Assembly (NCBI GenBank): GCA_963784375.1
Contig: CAWAQY010000021.1
Span: 51,093 to 115,092, forward strand
DNA from: an uncultured Chloroflexia bacterium
GTDB taxonomy: Bacteria; Chloroflexota; Dehalococcoidia; GIF9; UBA5629
DNA length: 64,000 bases
Direction of reading: 5' to 3'
In this document: positions 7,107 through 61,566 of the stretch, one piece after another
Numbering within the stretch: the first letter of the stretch is position 1
Layout: each line of letters opens with the position of its first letter
Program-made: the position numbers and the translations under genes
The notes under the pieces: generated by a model
Told to the model about the DNA's origin: nothing
The model's database searches: none
Seen by the model: the letters and a program-made list of their open reading frames with translations, nothing else

Positions 7107-7194
7107 TGGCGGAGGGGGTGGGATTCGAACCCACGTTAGCTTGCGCTAAAACGGTTTTCAAGACCGTCGCCATCGTCCACTCGGCCACCCCTCC
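7107..7194 (-). tRNA. tRNA-Ser (anticodon TGA)
   Basis: GGAGGGG/CCCCTCC acceptor stem, ACGGT-CT-TGA-AA-ACCGT anticodon arm, long variable arm, GGTTCGAATCC, G discriminator and encoded CCA. Confidence 0.97.
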
Positions 7195-54503: not shown

Positions 54504-57500
54504 ATGAATATAAGCAGTATTTTTCCGCTGGCTGCCGGATTAGCCTATATCCCGCTATTATGCCTCCTGGTTATAAATAATAAGTGGGAAAAAGGTCACA
54601 AGCTGTTTGCCGCATATCTGATTGCAGCAATGATATGGAGCCTCAGTGACTTTTTACTGCGCAGTGACTTCCTCGTATCCCACAAAGTAATTCTGTTCCA
54701 AATTGTTATGAGCTCTTATCTATTGGTATTAACTCAATATTACTATTTTATTAAATTTTATCTCTACGGTTCAGGCGATCTGGTAATGCGTCTTAGCTAC
54801 GCTCTGCTCATTATTTTCATCGCAGCCTGTATTCTGGGATACATTCCACAGGGTCTCACTTACCATAATGGAGAAGTCACACCTGTCTTTGGTTTATGGA
54901 TTATTGTAATCATTGTGCCACCCGCACTCATTATGACTCGACTAATATATTGTATGGTAAAGAGGTTCCGGGTTTCAGAGGACCCTACAGAACGTAATCG
55001 AATTAAATACTTTTTGGCTGGAGTTAGTTTGGTAACCTCTATGGCTTTATTAAATTTGGCGCCTATAGGTAATGCACTACCGGTGACACATATAGGCCGT
55101 ATTGCCAGTGCAGCCATCTTAACCTATGCTTTCCTGCGATATCGAATACTGGACACAAAGTTCCTGTTCCGTCGAGCATTTTTCTATTCCTTAATGCTAG
55201 GTCTTTATCTGTTCGCATATTTAGTTTGGCTTTTTCTGTTTCATCTGGGCTTCGGAATTGAGTTAAATCCATACACGTGTGTCATCATCGCCGTGCTCAC
55301 AGGGCTATCTCTCGCGGGAGTTTGGGGTAGAGCACGCTTATTCTTTACCGATAAGACGGAGGAGCTTTTTTATGGAGAAACTTATTCGCAGCGCCAGGAA
55401 CTAACCGATTTTGTGAGAGAAAAAATACGCGGCGTTTTTAGTTTACAGGAACTAAGTCAGGGATTATTGCCGCCCTTATCTAAAGTGTTGAACTGTCAAC
55501 GGGCATACATGTTAATCCCTGAAATTGGAACCGGGGATTTTGTCAGCGAGTATTCCGAGCCCCCTTTGCCCGAAGACAAGCGGTTAAGAATAGATAAAAA
55601 CAGCCCCATTATTACCTGGCTCAAGCACGAACGACGTTACTTGAATAAAGCAAGTTTGTCTATTCTGCCCGAATTTAGAAGTCTGTGGGCCGACGAAATA
55701 GGTAAAATCAACAAGTTGGACGTGGCATTGTTTTTCCCATTCATAAGCAGAGATAATCTCATTGGTATCCTGGCATTAAGTCATAAAATTTCCGGTAAAT
55801 ATTCACTCGATGAAACTAATACCGTGGAAAGTATTACAAATCAGGCAGCGATAACTCTTGAAAAGGAATACCTCCGAGCAGAAATCAAGAGACAGGAACA
55901 GGAACTATTACTCATAAACCGCCTCTCCGTGCTTATTACTTCAAGCCTGAATATTCAAGAAGTTTATGATGCTTTCGTAGCAGGGCTCAGGGAGATGATT
56001 CAGGTAGATTTTGCTACCGTAGCTTTAATTGATGGCGAAGACTTGCGATTTTCCGCTCTCTCTTCTCAGGTTGGTTCTGCCTGGAAAGTTGGAGAAACTA
56101 TCCCGCTAAAAAATACCGCTACCGAATGGGTTATAACTCACAAAAAATACCTGATGGAACCTGACCTGGAACAGGATACGACTTTTGAAACCGGAAAAGA
56201 ATTTCTTAGACGAGGAATTCGTTCAATAGTTTATTTGCCTTTAATTGTTAAAGACAATGGGATTGGCGCTCTCATCATTGGAAGTCGATCGTCAAATGCA
56301 TACCCACGTGCCCAGGTAAATCTTCTGGAGCGTCTGGCTTCTCAGATTTCAGTATCAATAGCCAATGCGCAGCTTTATTTAAAAGCGGAACAGAGGGCAC
56401 GTATAGACGAATTAACCGGCTTGTATAACCGCAGGCACTTCGATGAAACGCTTACGCATGAAATTGAGCGCCATTCGCGTTATGGCAGTATGCTCTCTTT
56501 AATTTATATTGACCTTGATAATTTTAAGAAATTTAACGACTCCAACGGCCATCTGGCTGGCGATAAAATGCTGACAAAAATTGGACACTCTATAAAGCGG
56601 GCTACCAGGAACGTTGACTTTGCTTTTCGCTATGGTGGTGATGAATTCGCAATAGTCATGCCTCATACTCCTGCCGAAGAAAGTTTGACCGCAGTCGAAA
56701 GAATAAGAAAGGAAATTGCTACCACGTATGGTGAAAACGAATTAATTACTGCCAGCATCGGCATAGCCTCCTGGCCCAGCGATGGACTGACGATAGATCA
56801 GATAATTGACGCCGCCGATAAGGCGCTTTATCATGCCAAGAGGACTGGAGGCAATAGGAGCTGCCTCGTTTCCCAGATGTTAACGTCAACCACAGATATA
56901 GAAGAGAGTAAATCTGATTTGGAAAAAGAATCATTGAATACGATTTATGCACTCGCTTCAACTATTGAAGCACGAGACCTCTATACCTATGGCCATTCTC
57001 AGAAGGTACGAACTTATGCAGTAGCCCTGGCCGAGGCCCTTGGTTTGCCTGGTTCAAAAGTAGTCAGTATCAGTCATGCAGCTCTTCTTCACGATATAGG
57101 CAAGATAGGCATTTACGATGAAGTGCTCAATAAACCAGGGAAACTTGATCCAACGGAATTCGAGTTGGTCAAGACTCATCCTCAATTGTCCCGGACTATC
57201 GTGGCTCACGTGACCAGCTTAACACCATGTTTACAGGCGATAGTCCAGCACCATGAACGTTGGGATGGCACTGGATATCCCAATAAATTAAAGGGTGAGG
57301 CTATTTCACTCGAAGGGCGAATCCTTGCTGTGGCTGATGCATTCGATGCAATGACCTCCAAACGTCCCTATCATGAACCTTTGTCTTCGAAGAAGGCGAT
57401 TCAGGAACTTAAACGGTGCGCCGGTAACCAGTTTGATCCCAAATTAGTGGAAATTTTCATACCCATTGCTCTCTCTGTTATTCCCCAGGAATCACCGTCC

Positions 57501-57545
57501 AAACAACAAAAGGACAAAAAGCAGGAGGAAATTAAATCACCTTAA
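54504..57545 (+). CDS. Membrane sensor (HisKA_7TM-like) + 2 GAF + GGDEF + HD-GYP protein
   Basis: Multi-TM N-terminus; DELTGLYNRR, RNVD I-site, RYGGDEF; GHS, LLHDIGK, HHERWDGTGYP, ADAFDAM. Confidence 0.92.
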   Translation: MNISSIFPLAAGLAYIPLLCLLVINNKWEKGHKLFAAYLIAAMIWSLSDFLLRSDFLVSHKVILFQIVMSSYLLVLTQYYYFIKFYLYGSGDLVMRLSYALLIIFIAACILGYIPQGLTYHNGEVTPVFGLWIIVIIVPPALIMTRLIYCMVKRFRVSEDPTERNRIKYFLAGVSLVTSMALLNLAPIGNALPVTHIGRIASAAILTYAFLRYRILDTKFLFRRAFFYSLMLGLYLFAYLVWLFLFHLGFGIELNPYTCVIIAVLTGLSLAGVWGRARLFFTDKTEELFYGETYSQRQELTDFVREKIRGVFSLQELSQGLLPPLSKVLNCQRAYMLIPEIGTGDFVSEYSEPPLPEDKRLRIDKNSPIITWLKHERRYLNKASLSILPEFRSLWADEIGKINKLDVALFFPFISRDNLIGILALSHKISGKYSLDETNTVESITNQAAITLEKEYLRAEIKRQEQELLLINRLSVLITSSLNIQEVYDAFVAGLREMIQVDFATVALIDGEDLRFSALSSQVGSAWKVGETIPLKNTATEWVITHKKYLMEPDLEQDTTFETGKEFLRRGIRSIVYLPLIVKDNGIGALIIGSRSSNAYPRAQVNLLERLASQISVSIANAQLYLKAEQRARIDELTGLYNRRHFDETLTHEIERHSRYGSMLSLIYIDLDNFKKFNDSNGHLAGDKMLTKIGHSIKRATRNVDFAFRYGGDEFAIVMPHTPAEESLTAVERIRKEIATTYGENELITASIGIASWPSDGLTIDQIIDAADKALYHAKRTGGNRSCLVSQMLTSTTDIEESKSDLEKESLNTIYALASTIEARDLYTYGHSQKVRTYAVALAEALGLPGSKVVSISHAALLHDIGKIGIYDEVLNKPGKLDPTEFELVKTHPQLSRTIVAHVTSLTPCLQAIVQHHERWDGTGYPNKLKGEAISLEGRILAVADAFDAMTSKRPYHEPLSSKKAIQELKRCAGNQFDPKLVEIFIPIALSVIPQESPSKQQKDKKQEEIKSP

Positions 57546-58182
57546 CCAGGGCGAATATATTACGGGATAAATAGGTCACCGGTAGTTTAAAAGACTTTTC
57601 CGGAAACATGCTGATTACGTTAAATCCTGCAGAAACCAGTGTGCTTTTTAGTTCAAGATATGAATAAAGATAATAATAACGATCAAGTGCTTTATCGTGT
57701 AATCGCCACGGTACATTTACTTCCTTGCCCTTCAGCCAGAATCCAGGTTGCCACCGGTTCCACACTGTGATTAAAGCTTCTCCCCCGGGCTTCAATACTC
57801 TTCTCAACTCTTGAAACGCGATTCTCCTCTGTCCTGCTCCTTGAATATGGTGATAGGAAGCAATAGCAATCACCCAATCGAAAGAACTATTGGAAAATGG
57901 CAAATATGAAGCATCCGCGACGGCAAAGTTGGCTTTAAACCCAAATTTTACAGCGTACTTTTGTGCCATCCCAATCATCCGTTCTGAGAAATCAATTCCG
58001 GAAAGTTCGAAACACCCTTTAAAAGGCAAGAAGTCAGGCCCATGAGCGCAACCAATATTCAGCAGAGTGCCATGCTGCCACCTTTTTGCTATCTCAGTAA
58101 GCTCCGCGGTAAAACGGCACCAATGCCGCAGGCGGTACCAGCTTTCAGCAATGTCGTTGAAGACTTCTCTGTTTGTTGACAT
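57532..58182 (-). CDS. Class I SAM methyltransferase, Trm9/ALKBH8-like
   Basis: VFNDIA, LNIGCAHG, DAS.LPF...FD..IAIASYHH...RR...EL.R.LKPGG.ALITVW, VPW, RYYYLY..EL. Confidence 0.8.
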   Translation of the reverse strand: MSTNREVFNDIAESWYRLRHWCRFTAELTEIAKRWQHGTLLNIGCAHGPDFLPFKGCFELSGIDFSERMIGMAQKYAVKFGFKANFAVADASYLPFSNSSFDWVIAIASYHHIQGAGQRRIAFQELRRVLKPGGEALITVWNRWQPGFWLKGKEVNVPWRLHDKALDRYYYLYSYLELKSTLVSAGFNVISMFPEKSFKLPVTYLSRNIFALVKVI

Positions 58183-58221
58183 ATATGGAATTTGTTACAC
58201 TCTGCTATAGAAGAACACATC

Positions 58222-59646
58222 GTGAAGAAAATATCAAGAACGATATCTGGCGTTACTCCCGTTGCGGTTATGGCCCAACCTACAGGTTGCCCTAATAACT
58301 GTGTCTATTGCCCGACTTATTCCGATGCACCCAAAAGCTATACTTCCGAATCACCGGCTGTAATCAGAGCAAAATATTGCAACTATGAGGTTAAAGGCCA
58401 GGTTGAAAAGAGACTAAAAACATTTTCCGAAATGGGTCATCCCGCAGACAAGGTCGAGCTTATTGTCATGGGAGGAACATTCCTGGCCTGTCCCGAAGAG
58501 TATCAATACCAGCTCATAAAGGACTGCTATGACGGGCTTAACGGTTGCATTTCCCGGGACTTAGATAATGCCAAGGAAATTAACGAAACTGCCGTCCACA
58601 GGTGCGTGGGGCTCTGCATTGAAACCAGGCCCGATTGGTGCCAGGAAGATCAAATCAAGAGAATGTTGGAGTTCGGTACCACCAGGGTAGAGTTGGGAGT
58701 TCAAACTCTCGATGATCGAATTTATGAGATTGTCAACCGGGGACATACGATTGACCATGTGGTGCAGGCAACCAAATTGCTCAAAGAAGCCGGGATTAAA
58801 GTCTATTATCACTGGATGCCGGGGCTTCCCGGTTCGAATCTCGAACACGACCTGGAATTATCCAGAATGCTGTTTGAAGACCAGAGATTCAGACCCGATG
58901 GGCTTAAACTTTACCCGACTCTGGTCATCGCCAATACAGAACTTCTAAACTGGTATGAGGATGGCCGCTATCAACCTTATACCAGGGATGAAACCGTAGA
59001 ATTACTGGCAAGAATTAAGTCTATTGTTCCGGAGTATGTAAGAATACCACGCGTAATGAGAGATATACCTGCCCAATTCATTGTTGCAGGTTGTAAAGAC
59101 TTGTCCTTACGAAGCTCCATCAGACAAAAAATGCTGGAGATGGGCACCACCTGCAAATGTATACGGTGCCGCGAATACGGCCACCGTCTGAGGGATGGCT
59201 GGAAAATCGGAACACCTCATTTGAAAAGGATAAATTATGAGGCTTCTGATGGGACCGAAATATTCCTTTCTTTTGAGGATGAAAGAGAGACATTATTCGG
59301 CCTGCTTCGCCTGCGGATCGGCTCTTCAACACACGATAATAGAAATATGACCATGGTCAGAGAGCTCCATGTATTCGGTTCGGAATTACCGCTCGGGACA
59401 CAGTCTGTTGATGCTGCTCAGCACAAAGGATTGGGAGGACAGTTGCTCAAGGAAGCTGAAAGGATCAGCAGGGAAGAATATCATGCCGGGAAGATAGCAA
59501 TAATCAGCGGCGTGGGTGTCAGGAATTATTTTAGCTCCGAATTCGGGTATAAACTCGAAGGAGCTTATATGGTAAAAGACCTCAAACTCAATGAGAACTC
59601 TGGTAAAGATGGCACGAGACTTGATGCCCCGGAGCCATTTCCTTAA
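58222..59646 (+). CDS. elp3: tRNA uridine(34) carboxymethyltransferase Elp3 (radical SAM + KAT)
   Basis: KKISRTISGVTPVAVM, CPNNCVYCP, MGGTF, IETRPD, VELGVQ, PDGLKLYP, RVMRDIP, CKCIRCRE, VRELHVFG, QHKGLG, ISGVGVR. Confidence 0.95.
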   Translation: MKKISRTISGVTPVAVMAQPTGCPNNCVYCPTYSDAPKSYTSESPAVIRAKYCNYEVKGQVEKRLKTFSEMGHPADKVELIVMGGTFLACPEEYQYQLIKDCYDGLNGCISRDLDNAKEINETAVHRCVGLCIETRPDWCQEDQIKRMLEFGTTRVELGVQTLDDRIYEIVNRGHTIDHVVQATKLLKEAGIKVYYHWMPGLPGSNLEHDLELSRMLFEDQRFRPDGLKLYPTLVIANTELLNWYEDGRYQPYTRDETVELLARIKSIVPEYVRIPRVMRDIPAQFIVAGCKDLSLRSSIRQKMLEMGTTCKCIRCREYGHRLRDGWKIGTPHLKRINYEASDGTEIFLSFEDERETLFGLLRLRIGSSTHDNRNMTMVRELHVFGSELPLGTQSVDAAQHKGLGGQLLKEAERISREEYHAGKIAIISGVGVRNYFSSEFGYKLEGAYMVKDLKLNENSGKDGTRLDAPEPFP

Positions 59647-60574
59647 GTTCGGGTTCGACAGTACTACAGATTGAAAGCACTTTATGGCACCGGGTATGAA
59701 AACGGCATCCGGAAGGAGGGGCCACCGGTGACGGTACGTCACCTTTTAATATAATCCTCTCCTTTTTCCCCGATTGAAGGCTCGGGACTGCTGATAACAA
59801 TGCTTCAGTATAAGGATGCAAAGGATTCTGAAAAAGCTCTTTCTTCTCCGATAGCTCTACAATCTTTCCCAGATACATTACAGCTATCCGGTGAGAAATA
59901 TATTTGATGACTGAAAGGTCGTGGGCAATAAAAATATAGGTCAGCCCGAGTTTTTGCTGGATGTCCAGCATCAAATTTAATATCTGTGCCTGGATAGAAA
60001 CATCCAGAGCGCTCACCGGTTCATCAGCAATAATCACCCTGGGATTTATTGCCAGGGCGCGCGCGATGCCTATTCGTTGCTTCTGTCCGCCGCTGAACTC
60101 ATGAGGATATAGTTCTGATTGTTTTGCTTCCAGCCCAACCTGCTCCATCAAGTCGCCAATCCGTTCATAGCGCTCTTTTTCACCGGCAATATCGTGTATT
60201 ATAAAAGCCTCCCCGATGCTGTCGCCCACTGACATCCTGGGGTCCAGCGAAGCTTCCGGATCCTGGAATATTATCTGGATACCACGCCTCAGCTCTTTTA
60301 ACCCTTTCTTATCCAAAGCACTGATATTGATTCCTTGATAAAAAATCTCGCCGCCGGTTGGGTTTTCTAATCTTACGATCGTCCGTCCTAAAGTGGATTT
60401 CCCGCATCCCGATTCGCCAACAAGACCCAGAATCTCTCCCGCATTTATTTGAAATGAAACACCGTCAACGGCTTTCACATCGCCAATGCGTTGAGAAAAA
60501 ATACCTGAGGTAACCGGATAATACTTCCTCAAATTCCTGATATCCAGGAGGGGCTTTTCTATAAAATTAATCAT
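59588..60574 (-). CDS. Oligopeptide/dipeptide ABC transporter ATPase (OppF/DppF-like)
   Basis: [36 protein letters not shown]. Confidence 0.94.
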
Positions 60575-60591
60575 GTCTCACTAAATCTTTA

Positions 60592-61566
60592 TTAATTTTT
60601 ATGTAAATGGCAGCTAATCGAATGTTCTTCTGAAAGTGCCACTTTTTCAGGCATTATTTGACGGCAAATTTCTTTAGCCTGTAGACATCTCGGGTGGAAC
60701 GGGCATCCGGAAGGCAGGGCAGTGGGATCCGGGGTATTTCCCGGAATCGAGACCAATCTATCCCCTGATAATAAGAAATTAGGCAGACATTCAAGCAGCC
60801 CAATAGTGTAGAAATGCTTCGGATTATGTATCATCTCGGAAACGGGAGCTGTTTCCAGGTCTCTGCCTGCATAGATGATCGCAGCCCTGTCTCCAATCTC
60901 AGAGACTACCCCGAAGTCATGTGTGATAAATATCAAAGACATCTGCCTGGTTTTTTTTAATTCATTCAAAATACTCAAAATCTGGGCTTTAATAGTCACA
61001 TCTACGGCTGTAGTAGGTTCATCAGCGATTAAGAGCTTTGGATCGCAGGAAAGGCTCATGGCAATCATCGCTCTTTGCCTCATACCTCCGGATAATTGAT
61101 GAGGGTAGTTTCCCATAGCTCTCTCCGGAGAAGGAATGCCCATTTCGGAAAGTAACTGTATACATCGATTCCTGGCGGCTTTGTTATCTGATCCAAGATG
61201 AAGCTTAATTTGTTCTATTATTTGTTCTCCAATGGTAAACACGGGATTCAAAGCAGATTGAGCGTCTTGAAAAATCATTGCTATTTCTTTTCCCCGGATT
61301 CGCCTTAGTTCCGCAGGGGGACATTTAAGTAAATCCAAACCATTATAGAAAGCTGTACCACCTTCAACCTTACCTGGTGGACTCTGAACTAAACCCAGAA
61401 TGGATAAAGCGGTTACCGATTTCCCGCAACCCGATTCACCGACAAGGCAAAGACATTCCCCTTTTTTAACTTCAAAATTAACACCATCGACCGCCTTCAC
61501 TTTACCGCGCCTGGTAAAAAAGCTGGTCTTTAAGTCACTCACTTTTAAAATGCTGTTATTTTCCAT
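60592..61566 (-). CDS. Oligopeptide/dipeptide ABC transporter ATPase (OppD/DppD-like)
   Basis: [30 protein letters not shown]. Confidence 0.94.
   Translation of the reverse strand: MENNSILKVSDLKTSFFTRRGKVKAVDGVNFEVKKGECLCLVGESGCGKSVTALSILGLVQSPPGKVEGGTAFYNGLDLLKCPPAELRRIRGKEIAMIFQDAQSALNPVFTIGEQIIEQIKLHLGSDNKAARNRCIQLLSEMGIPSPERAMGNYPHQLSGGMRQRAMIAMSLSCDPKLLIADEPTTAVDVTIKAQILSILNELKKTRQMSLIFITHDFGVVSEIGDRAAIIYAGRDLETAPVSEMIHNPKHFYTIGLLECLPNFLLSGDRLVSIPGNTPDPTALPSGCPFHPRCLQAKEICRQIMPEKVALSEEHSISCHLHKN

Follow-up and report, generated by a model that had tools for sequence, protein, structure and literature searches.

Can a bacterium run the wobble-uridine pathway in which Elp3 and Trm9 act in succession? 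The pathway is textbook knowledge in eukaryotes, and the question is raised by a gene pair in a stretch of 64,000 nucleotides from an uncultured Chloroflexia bacterium (contig CAWAQY010000021.1; this whole stretch is called the window below), where elp3 lies head to head with a gene for a small class I S-adenosylmethionine (SAM) methyltransferase. A preliminary description of this DNA had interpreted the two genes as a eukaryote- or archaea-type route for the modification of uridine 34 (U34) of tRNA, and our analysis supports that interpretation through the Trm9 likeness of the methyltransferase, its linkage to elp3 and the fact that MnmE, MnmG and the Cmo enzymes were not found. In our judgement the pair probably represents a bacterial pathway from 5-carboxymethyluridine (cm5U) to 5-methoxycarbonylmethyluridine (mcm5U) or its 2-thio derivative (mcm5s2U), that is, a self-contained two-gene module of eukaryotic/archaeal type which would stand in place of MnmE/MnmG.

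Elp3 and the likeness of its neighbour to Trm9

Judged by its sequence, the larger gene is unambiguously a member of the Elp3 family with a predicted cm5U34 synthase activity. Its product scored 577.1 bits against the NCBIfam model TIGR01211 (cut-off 350; model positions 57-522), carries the Pfam domains Radical_SAM and Radical_SAM_C, the radical-SAM domain being followed by a GNAT/KAT domain, and over residues 1-454 matches the crystallised Elp3 of Dehalococcoides mccartyi (DmcElp3; 5l7j_A in the PDB) with 594 bits, the next distinct Elp3 group among the solved structures (6ia8/6iad/6iaz) reaching 431 bits.

For the methyltransferase the preliminary description had quoted a series of short motifs and had pointed to similar blocks in Trm9 and ALKBH8. 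All the quoted motifs could be found in the translation, namely VFNDIA (residues 7-12), IAIASYHH (105-112), QRRIAFQELRRVLKPGGEALITVW (118-141), VPW (157-159) and RYYYLYSYLEL (168-178), and the blocks pointed to coincide with essential residues of Trm9. A family profile, A1, was built from 46 diverse full-length representatives; when compared with the PDB, it placed the solved Trm9 of Yarrowia lipolytica (5cm2_Z) first, at E 9e-30 with 106.8 bits and nearly over the full length (positions 17-197 of the 212 in the profile), which speaks for the suspected Trm9 likeness. In the search with the single sequence, 5cm2_Z was the only one among the three printed alignments that extended through the C-terminal VW/VPW/RYY blocks, with LITVW, VPW and RYYYLY of the window protein facing LIYVW, VPW and RYYHLY. 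Furthermore, the AlphaFold model of the methyltransferase (mean pLDDT, the predicted local distance difference test score, 96.5) was compared with solved structures by Foldseek, and 5cm2_Z was ahead of all other listed matches in root mean square deviation (2.6 Å, the lowest), in target TM-score (0.80) and in identity (25%). Overall similarity favours Trm9 narrowly over other solved methyltransferases. A PDB search with the C-terminal 78 residues (57535-57768, minus strand) gave nothing significant, the best match being an unrelated phosphatase at E 0.13; such a search with a single sequence has no power.

Of 120 listed homologues 44 are named by JGI/IMG, 26 of them TRM9 and 9 UbiE, and the TRM9 label shows that the similarity had already been caught by annotation pipelines; NCBI calls the homologues 'class I SAM-dependent methyltransferase'. 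The clusters of 10 distant family representatives bear the automatic name UbiE in three cases and TRM9 in one. Longer forms are rare: among 1216 candidates a single protein of 393 amino acids with an additional PF04304 domain matched at E 1e-15 or better, in one family representative of 492 amino acids the methyltransferase is fused to a WecG-type glycosyltransferase domain, and no fusion of Elp3 with the methyltransferase was found among the same 1216 candidates, which is weak evidence of absence. The nearest look-alike clusters outside Chloroflexota are archaeal (Nanobdellota, Thermoplasmatota), and we regard this as a lead only.

The active site was compared with that of Saccharomyces cerevisiae Trm9 (ScTrm9), for which the accessible text of Letoquart 2015 (PMC4678810) reports that replacement of R29, D72, H116, W145, W168, R241, Y243 or N271 by Ala abolished or strongly reduced the activity and rendered the cells zymocin-resistant. 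The roles proposed there are that R29 and R241 hold the carboxylate of cm5U, W145 stacks on U34 and N271 reads the uracil. Combining the residue numbers of that article for S. cerevisiae and for Y. lipolytica with HMMER alignments to 5cm2_Z, we found that the window methyltransferase carries equivalents of all eight essential residues (Table 1), and that 76-80 of 80 Dehalococcoidia-type sequences retain each of them. D64 is invariant both in these 80 sequences and in the 46 members of the wider family, and R168 is invariant in the 46. N208 could be equated with N271 because family members without a 10-residue insertion share with Trm9 a strand start of the form E-x-(K/R/D)-N-hydrophobic.

Association of the methyltransferase with Elp3

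According to the preliminary description, a lack of conservation beside elp3 would speak against the pathway. The gene proved to be conserved there: in the class to which the window belongs, Elp3 occurs in 24 of 151 genomes, and a profile search (at least 150 bits) detected the methyltransferase in 23 of these 24 and in none of the 127 Elp3-negative genomes. The two groups of matches are well separated, since the full-length matches in the 23 genomes scored 152-271 bits and all remaining ones covered the core only and did not exceed 95 bits. In 21 of the 23 genomes holding both genes these are adjacent and divergent; in the two exceptions they lie on separate contigs (G054) or both at contig ends (G112), and in the single Elp3-positive genome with no methyltransferase match (G130) Elp3 sits on a short contig.

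A similar picture was obtained from 80 loci retrieved with the methyltransferase itself. Elp3 lies upstream on the opposite strand in 68, with gaps of at most 519 nucleotides in 64 and of 1.2-1.6 kb in four. Among the 12 loci lacking an upstream Elp3, seven have less than 400 nucleotides of upstream sequence and five have room for it; a genome-wide search made for four of these five revealed a full Elp3 elsewhere in two and a C-terminal fragment in one, and no Elp3 was found in the fourth genome, which is incomplete. Given its recurrence in 21 of 23 class genomes and 68 of 80 loci, the divergent arrangement is far beyond chance.

The fragment belongs to a genome of about 1.8 Mb (G382) in which the methyltransferase gene (G382:C1:339155-339766, locus L009) has no adjoining Elp3. 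Its sole Elp3 match covers model positions 315-522 with 209.8 bits in a frame of 252 amino acids, and may reflect either decay of Elp3 or mis-assembly.

The survey was extended to a sample of 251 genomes of the phylum, 48 of which have Elp3, 21 from the window's class and 27 from other classes. In the scans for methyltransferases, scoring was confined to the 11-12 best first-look candidates of each genome. The window's form, which we call type A, is present in exactly the 21 same-class Elp3-positive genomes. In six genomes of other classes the surroundings of Elp3 were inspected, and in five of them a divergent methyltransferase of 237-249 amino acids, type B, was recognised, which is only 16-21% identical to the window protein. 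A profile made from these five sequences detected type B in 27 of the 251 genomes, exactly the 27 other-class genomes with Elp3; the five training genomes are part of this count, so that 22 of 22 are independent. Type B shares a contig with Elp3, divergently and within 2 kb, in 22 of the 27 genomes, as at L107:5226-5963 (+) beside Elp3 at L107:3053-4732 (-), one of the example loci L106-L110. Every Elp3 in the 48 Chloroflexota genomes is thus accompanied by a Trm9-like methyltransferase, usually head to head.

Type B has motifs of its own (FSATR, LHHxP, SxWQ, DWR, RYxH). Its best PDB match, too, is Trm9 (E 5.3e-14, 55.6 bits vs 44.1 for the runner-up), the alignment covering the N-terminal FS-x-TR motif, and types A and B are homologous across 192 columns (hhalign probability 99.9%, E 3e-31). 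Among 29 named type B homologues 11 carry the JGI label TRM9, and four type B homologues are named by NCBI as proteins of Brevefilum sp. The Elp3 beside type B in G220 (L107) is 40% identical to that of the window.

More distant type A-like proteins were found at 80 metagenome loci, 52 of which include Elp3 (48 divergent, 4 co-directional); of the 28 loci that do not, 18 offer less than 1 kb upstream. Where Elp3 is present, it is just 41-54% identical to the window's in 27 of the 52 cases. Since the pair persists despite such divergence and despite changes of gene order, which is a classic sign, we regard it as a functional couple. The pairing extends well beyond the clade of the window, a point absent from the preliminary description.

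The co-directional, abutting genes were seen in metagenome contigs of low guanine-cytosine (GC) content, at L167:3562-5624 and L187:4962-7062 and additionally in L168 and L189. In L167 Elp3 is followed by the methyltransferase and the two reading frames share one base, and in L187 the methyltransferase comes first. As to the hosts, a bacterial-type Tgt is encoded on L167 and a sigma-70 factor on L180. Two other contigs, L172 and L190, carry a threonyl-tRNA synthetase with an N-terminus that partially fits NF011500, the model of the Ser-tRNA(Thr) hydrolase, an archaeal-type editing domain. These genes show that the contigs with the pair do not all come from one domain of life, and that besides bacteria they probably include archaea.

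Locus layout, pathway context and competing readings

The start codons of the two genes are the ATG at 58180-58182 (read on the reverse complement) for the methyltransferase and the GTG at 58222-58224 for Elp3. The longest open reading frame listed for Elp3 runs from 58192 to 59646 (+); from the GTG, however, residues 1-454 align with residues 1-458 of DmcElp3 (5l7j_A), both proteins beginning MKK(I/L)SRTISGVTPVAV. Because residue 1 aligns with residue 1, GTG 58222 can be accepted as the true start of elp3 and 39 base pairs (bp) as the length of the spacer, so coordinates and alignment agree with the divergent arrangement as it had been described.

Table 1. Elements of the elp3/methyltransferase locus in the window, and methyltransferase residues equivalent to essential residues of ScTrm9
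Feature	Position	Strand	Basis
Trm9-like class I SAM methyltransferase (type A), 216 amino acids, ATG start; predicted tRNA cm5U34 carboxyl O-methyltransferase	57532..58182	-	Open reading frame
Divergent intergenic spacer, 39 bp, between the two start codons	58183..58221	.	Sequence
Elp3, radical-SAM/GNAT protein and predicted tRNA U34 carboxymethyl (cm5U) synthase, 474 amino acids, GTG start	58222..59646	+	TIGR01211, Pfam, PDB match
Equivalent of ScTrm9 R29	R19		HMMER alignment to 5cm2_Z
Equivalent of ScTrm9 D72	D64		Single-sequence alignment; Asp of the VGSD motif in 5cm2_Z
Equivalents of ScTrm9 H115/H116	H111/H112		Alignment to 5cm2_Z
Equivalent of ScTrm9 W145	W141		Alignment to 5cm2_Z
Equivalent of ScTrm9 W168	W159		Alignment to 5cm2_Z
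Equivalent of ScTrm9 R241	R168		Alignment to 5cm2_Z
Equivalent of ScTrm9 Y243	Y170		Alignment to 5cm2_Z
Equivalent of ScTrm9 N271	N208		Family alignment only

On both sides the pair is flanked by convergent genes, and it is therefore a stand-alone divergent unit. The gene at 54504-57545 (+), convergent with the methyltransferase gene and overlapping its 3' end by 14 bp, encodes a multi-pass membrane protein of 1013 amino acids, in the translation of which a GGDEF motif (RYGGDEF) and an HD-GYP-like one (HHERWDGTGYP) can be read. At 59588-61566 (-) there are two adjoining ATPase genes which, judged from their translations, have the look of an oligopeptide-type ABC transporter, the first being convergent with Elp3 and overlapping its 3' end by 59 bp. 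A promoter and terminator scan found no promoter-like match inside the spacer (58183-58221) and five sites in 57300-59900, where 3.7 were expected; it says nothing on the regulation of the pair.

The genome search that the preliminary description had proposed, for MnmE, MnmG, CmoA, CmoB and Trm112, found none of the first four and did find a Trm112-like gene. In the window's own genome, the assembly of which is 78% complete, there was no match to MnmG and none to MnmE above the cut-off, the matches below it being confined to positions 177-367 of the 446 in the model. Within the class, MnmG was matched in 52 of 151 genomes, all 52 among the 127 without Elp3 and none among the 24 with it; in the phylum sample it is present in 117 of 251 (the unpublished G185 and G282 included), again in none of the 48 with Elp3 as against 117 of the other 203. 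CmoA and CmoB were not found above cut-off in any of the five genomes searched, namely the window's and four near-complete relatives. A CmoM-like role of the methyltransferase was considered and rejected, as neither CmoA nor CmoB was found.

MnmA was found above cut-off in all five near-complete Elp3-positive relatives, and 2-thiolated products are therefore expected on the tRNAs for Glu, Gln and Lys. The window's assembly has no match to MnmA and none to PF01171 (TilS/TtcA-type), both of which the five near-complete relatives possess, so this absence most likely reflects an assembly gap and not a real loss.

Another contig of the window's genome encodes a Trm112p-like zinc-knuckle protein of 59 amino acids (G000:C1:256355-256531; L004:1498-1674), with a PF03966 match of 39.9 bits. 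PF03966 occurs in 119 of the 151 class genomes irrespective of Elp3, and in 15 of the 24 that have Elp3; the nine without a match include the complete genomes G055, G079 and G133, and for this reason it appears doubtful that the window methyltransferase depends on Trm112. The predicted complex of the methyltransferase with the Trm112-like protein scored 0.87, but the same score was given to two controls with unrelated partners, so that it speaks neither for nor against a complex.

ARAGORN located 32 tRNA genes in the assembly, including Glu-UUC, Gln-UUG, Arg-UCU, Arg-UCG, Gly-UCC, Leu-UAA, Leu-UAG, Val-UAC, Thr-UGU and Ser-UGA, and additionally a tRNA-like gene with the two-base anticodon '(ct)' at G000:C1:11090-11161 (-). 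The sole tRNA gene of the window is tRNA-Ser(UGA) at 7107-7194 (-), about 50 kb from the pair. Selenocysteine (Sec) decoding in this organism is likely, since SelB is present (G000:C19:30423-32261 (-), 336 bits, above cut-off); in the 78%-complete assembly, however, no tRNA-Sec reaches the Rfam gathering score, the best match to its model being tRNA-Ser(UGA) with 46.6 bits against the required 47. The preliminary description had named the window's tRNA-Ser(UGA) or tRNA-Sec as possible targets. No evidence for either was obtained, and the former was rejected as a dedicated target, as it lies 50 kb away and is merely the best sub-threshold match of the tRNA-Sec model.

On these grounds the following course of events may be envisaged. 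Elp3 would use radical-SAM chemistry and acetyl-CoA to place a carboxymethyl group on C5 of U34, an activity established for Elp3 enzymes elsewhere and assumed here, and the methyltransferase would then esterify the carboxyl group of cm5U with a methyl group from SAM, giving mcm5U. In its active site a flipped-out cm5U34 would be bound with R19 and R168 at the carboxylate, W141 stacking on the base and N208 reading the uracil. MnmA would probably add the 2-thio group, so that mcm5s2U would arise on tRNA-Glu, -Gln and -Lys by a hybrid pathway. The module probably acts on U34 tRNAs that read split codon boxes, and of these the assembly has Glu-UUC, Gln-UUG, Arg-UCU, Gly-UCC and Leu-UAA. The Trm112-like protein may assist the methyltransferase, but the clade as a whole probably does not need it.

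A number of observations weigh against the two-gene mcm5U pathway. The Pfam matches of the methyltransferase are generic (Methyltransf_25 and Methyltransf_11), no NCBIfam model scored above its cut-off, and no Trm9-specific model appeared in the Pfam and NCBIfam results. Trm9 5cm2_Z was third in the single-sequence PDB search (E 2.2e-10) and third by E-value in Foldseek, and the runner-up of profile A1, a generic methyltransferase aligned over the Rossmann core alone, follows at 102.7 bits, which is a thin margin. The likeness comes from profile, structure and residue matches, not from a tree including named Trm9, ALKBH8 and HVO_1032, and for N208 the HMMER alignment to 5cm2_Z ends before the residue is reached. 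Furthermore, the absences noted in the window's assembly are limited by its completeness. The Elp3/MnmG pattern amounts to exclusion, with replacement unproven, because the samples consist of related genomes that are not independent and because genomes lacking matches to both Elp3 and MnmG are common, making up about half of the class sample (75 of 151) and 86 of the 251 phylum genomes.

Other objections bear on the product, and they speak for a reading in which the methyltransferase is tied to Elp3 but catalyses a different reaction, on another Elp3-dependent intermediate, another atom of the base or another nucleotide of the anticodon loop, so that the product is not mcm5U. It is only 25% identical to Trm9 as aligned by Foldseek, the position of H116 (H112 in the window protein) is His in just 28 of the 46 wider-family members, and type B lacks an equivalent of Y243. 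Trm112, which is obligatory for the Trm9 of eukaryotes and of Haloferax volcanii, was not found in nine of the 24 Elp3-positive class genomes, and a 2020 review, in its accessible part, reports no direct evidence of xcm5U34 derivatives in these bacteria and only weak in vitro activity of DmcElp3. We hold this reading to be unlikely, as all eight essential residues of Trm9 are found in the window protein, including those at the carboxylate (R29, R241) and uracil (N271) positions, and as the same pairing is known, from the literature accessible to us, in archaea, where mcm5U has been shown.

It is considerably less probable that the methyltransferase acts on a protein, either Elp3 itself or a translation factor, and thereby regulates Elp3. 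Strict co-occurrence and adjacency show a functional link and not a substrate, and the enzymes partnered by Trm112 include protein methyltransferases such as Mtq2, according to the accessible literature; none of our results, however, suggests that a protein is the substrate, the tRNA enzyme Trm9 comes first in the profile search and fits best by deviation, TM-score and identity among the listed structures, and the nucleotide-binding residues are conserved. Finally, a generic UbiE/SmtA-like small-molecule methyltransferase that neighbours elp3 by chance, which would suit the generic or sub-cut-off Pfam and NCBIfam matches, the UbiE label of the minority of named homologues and the general name used by NCBI, is strongly disfavoured by the presence of the gene in Elp3-positive class genomes only, by a neighbourhood kept across Elp3 lineages of 41-54% identity and changes of gene order, and by the like behaviour of a second subtype, type B.

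The two-gene mcm5U pathway is thus the reading that we prefer, and the pairing of Elp3 with a Trm9-like protein, the lack of MnmG matches, that of CmoA and CmoB in the subset searched and the retention of MnmA in the near-complete relatives lead to a concrete prediction, the occurrence of mcm5U and mcm5s2U in bacterial tRNA. A wider proposal can be put forward only tentatively: a portable Elp3-Trm9 module in Chloroflexota and in some low-GC metagenome bacteria and archaea might have displaced MnmE/MnmG, in two co-evolved versions (in the window's class a short Elp3 with type A, in other classes a long one with type B), might be free of Trm112 in at least some lineages, and might make mcm5s2U together with MnmA by a hybrid bacterial/archaeal pathway.

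Comparison with known systems

The Elp3 of Dehalococcoides has served as a structural model for Elongator, and according to the accessible part of the 2020 review evidence for its in vivo product in bacteria is lacking; the review describes bacterial Elp3 as a rarity confined to one clade (Dehalococcoides) with a product not known in vivo. The accessible literature on DmcElp3 does not mention a neighbouring methyltransferase, and the word 'Trm9' does not occur in the accessible text of the review. Our literature search found no publication on a bacterial Trm9 partner in the texts accessible to it, a search that lay outside the 2016 DmcElp3 paper and the supplements of van Tran 2018 and Letoquart 2015; among the papers checked, those pairing 'Trm9' with 'Dehalococcoid' did so, in their accessible parts, by citing the 2016 structure paper. 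If our reading is correct, bacteria are able to run the eukaryotic/archaeal xcm5U pathway, a small and possibly Trm112-independent Trm9 becomes available for biochemical and structural work, and the annotations 'class I SAM-dependent methyltransferase' and 'UbiE' of these genes can be corrected.

As regards Elp3, the window protein is a close homologue of the crystallised DmcElp3 (PDB 5L7J, 5L7L, 6IA6), with the same N-terminus and in the same length class. Among bacterial U34 enzymes, CmoM (tRNA 5-carboxymethoxyuridine methyltransferase; PDB 8JOZ) is likewise a class I enzyme that methyl-esterifies a carboxyl side chain of U34; it is, however, a distant match of profile A1 (E 1.8e-11), far below Trm9, and its substrate 5-carboxymethoxyuridine (cmo5U) needs CmoA and CmoB. 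The MnmE/MnmG pathway (with MnmC) to xm5U34 modifies the same C5 of U34 and is likewise combined with the 2-thio group added by MnmA, but its enzymes and chemistry are unrelated, and in our samples MnmG and Elp3 are mutually exclusive. The MnmE/MnmG route serves the set of split-box tRNAs on which the Elp3/Trm9 route would act.

The eukaryotic counterpart is Trm9-Trm112 (S. cerevisiae; Y. lipolytica, PDB 5CM2), together with the methyltransferase domain of ALKBH8. The window protein has the same class I SAM fold, has here the first-ranked solved match of its family profile, matches the essential residues and is predicted to act downstream of Elp3 as these enzymes do; it differs in being bacterial, in its identity of about 25%, and in being a single-domain protein of 216 amino acids without RRM or AlkB domains. 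While Trm112 is obligatory in yeast, according to the accessible literature, the Trm112-like gene of the window's genome is unlinked to the pair, and relatives with Elp3 were found that show none.

For archaea, the accessible text of van Tran 2018 reports that mcm5U in H. volcanii depends on Trm9 (HVO_1032) and Trm112, cm5U34 synthase activity was shown for an archaeal Elp3, clustering of the Elp3 and Trm9 genes was reported in Sulfolobus solfataricus, and a 2017 review, as far as its accessible part goes, places close orthologues of HVO_1032 only in Sulfolobales and Halobacteriales. A stand-alone Elp3, a Trm9 homologue and their gene clustering are features common to these archaea and the window, the host of which, in contrast, is a bacterium. 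What is new in comparison with the known systems is the bacterial pair of Elp3 with a Trm9-like enzyme, and its variant features are the two subtypes, the loose or absent coupling to Trm112 and the pairing with MnmA.

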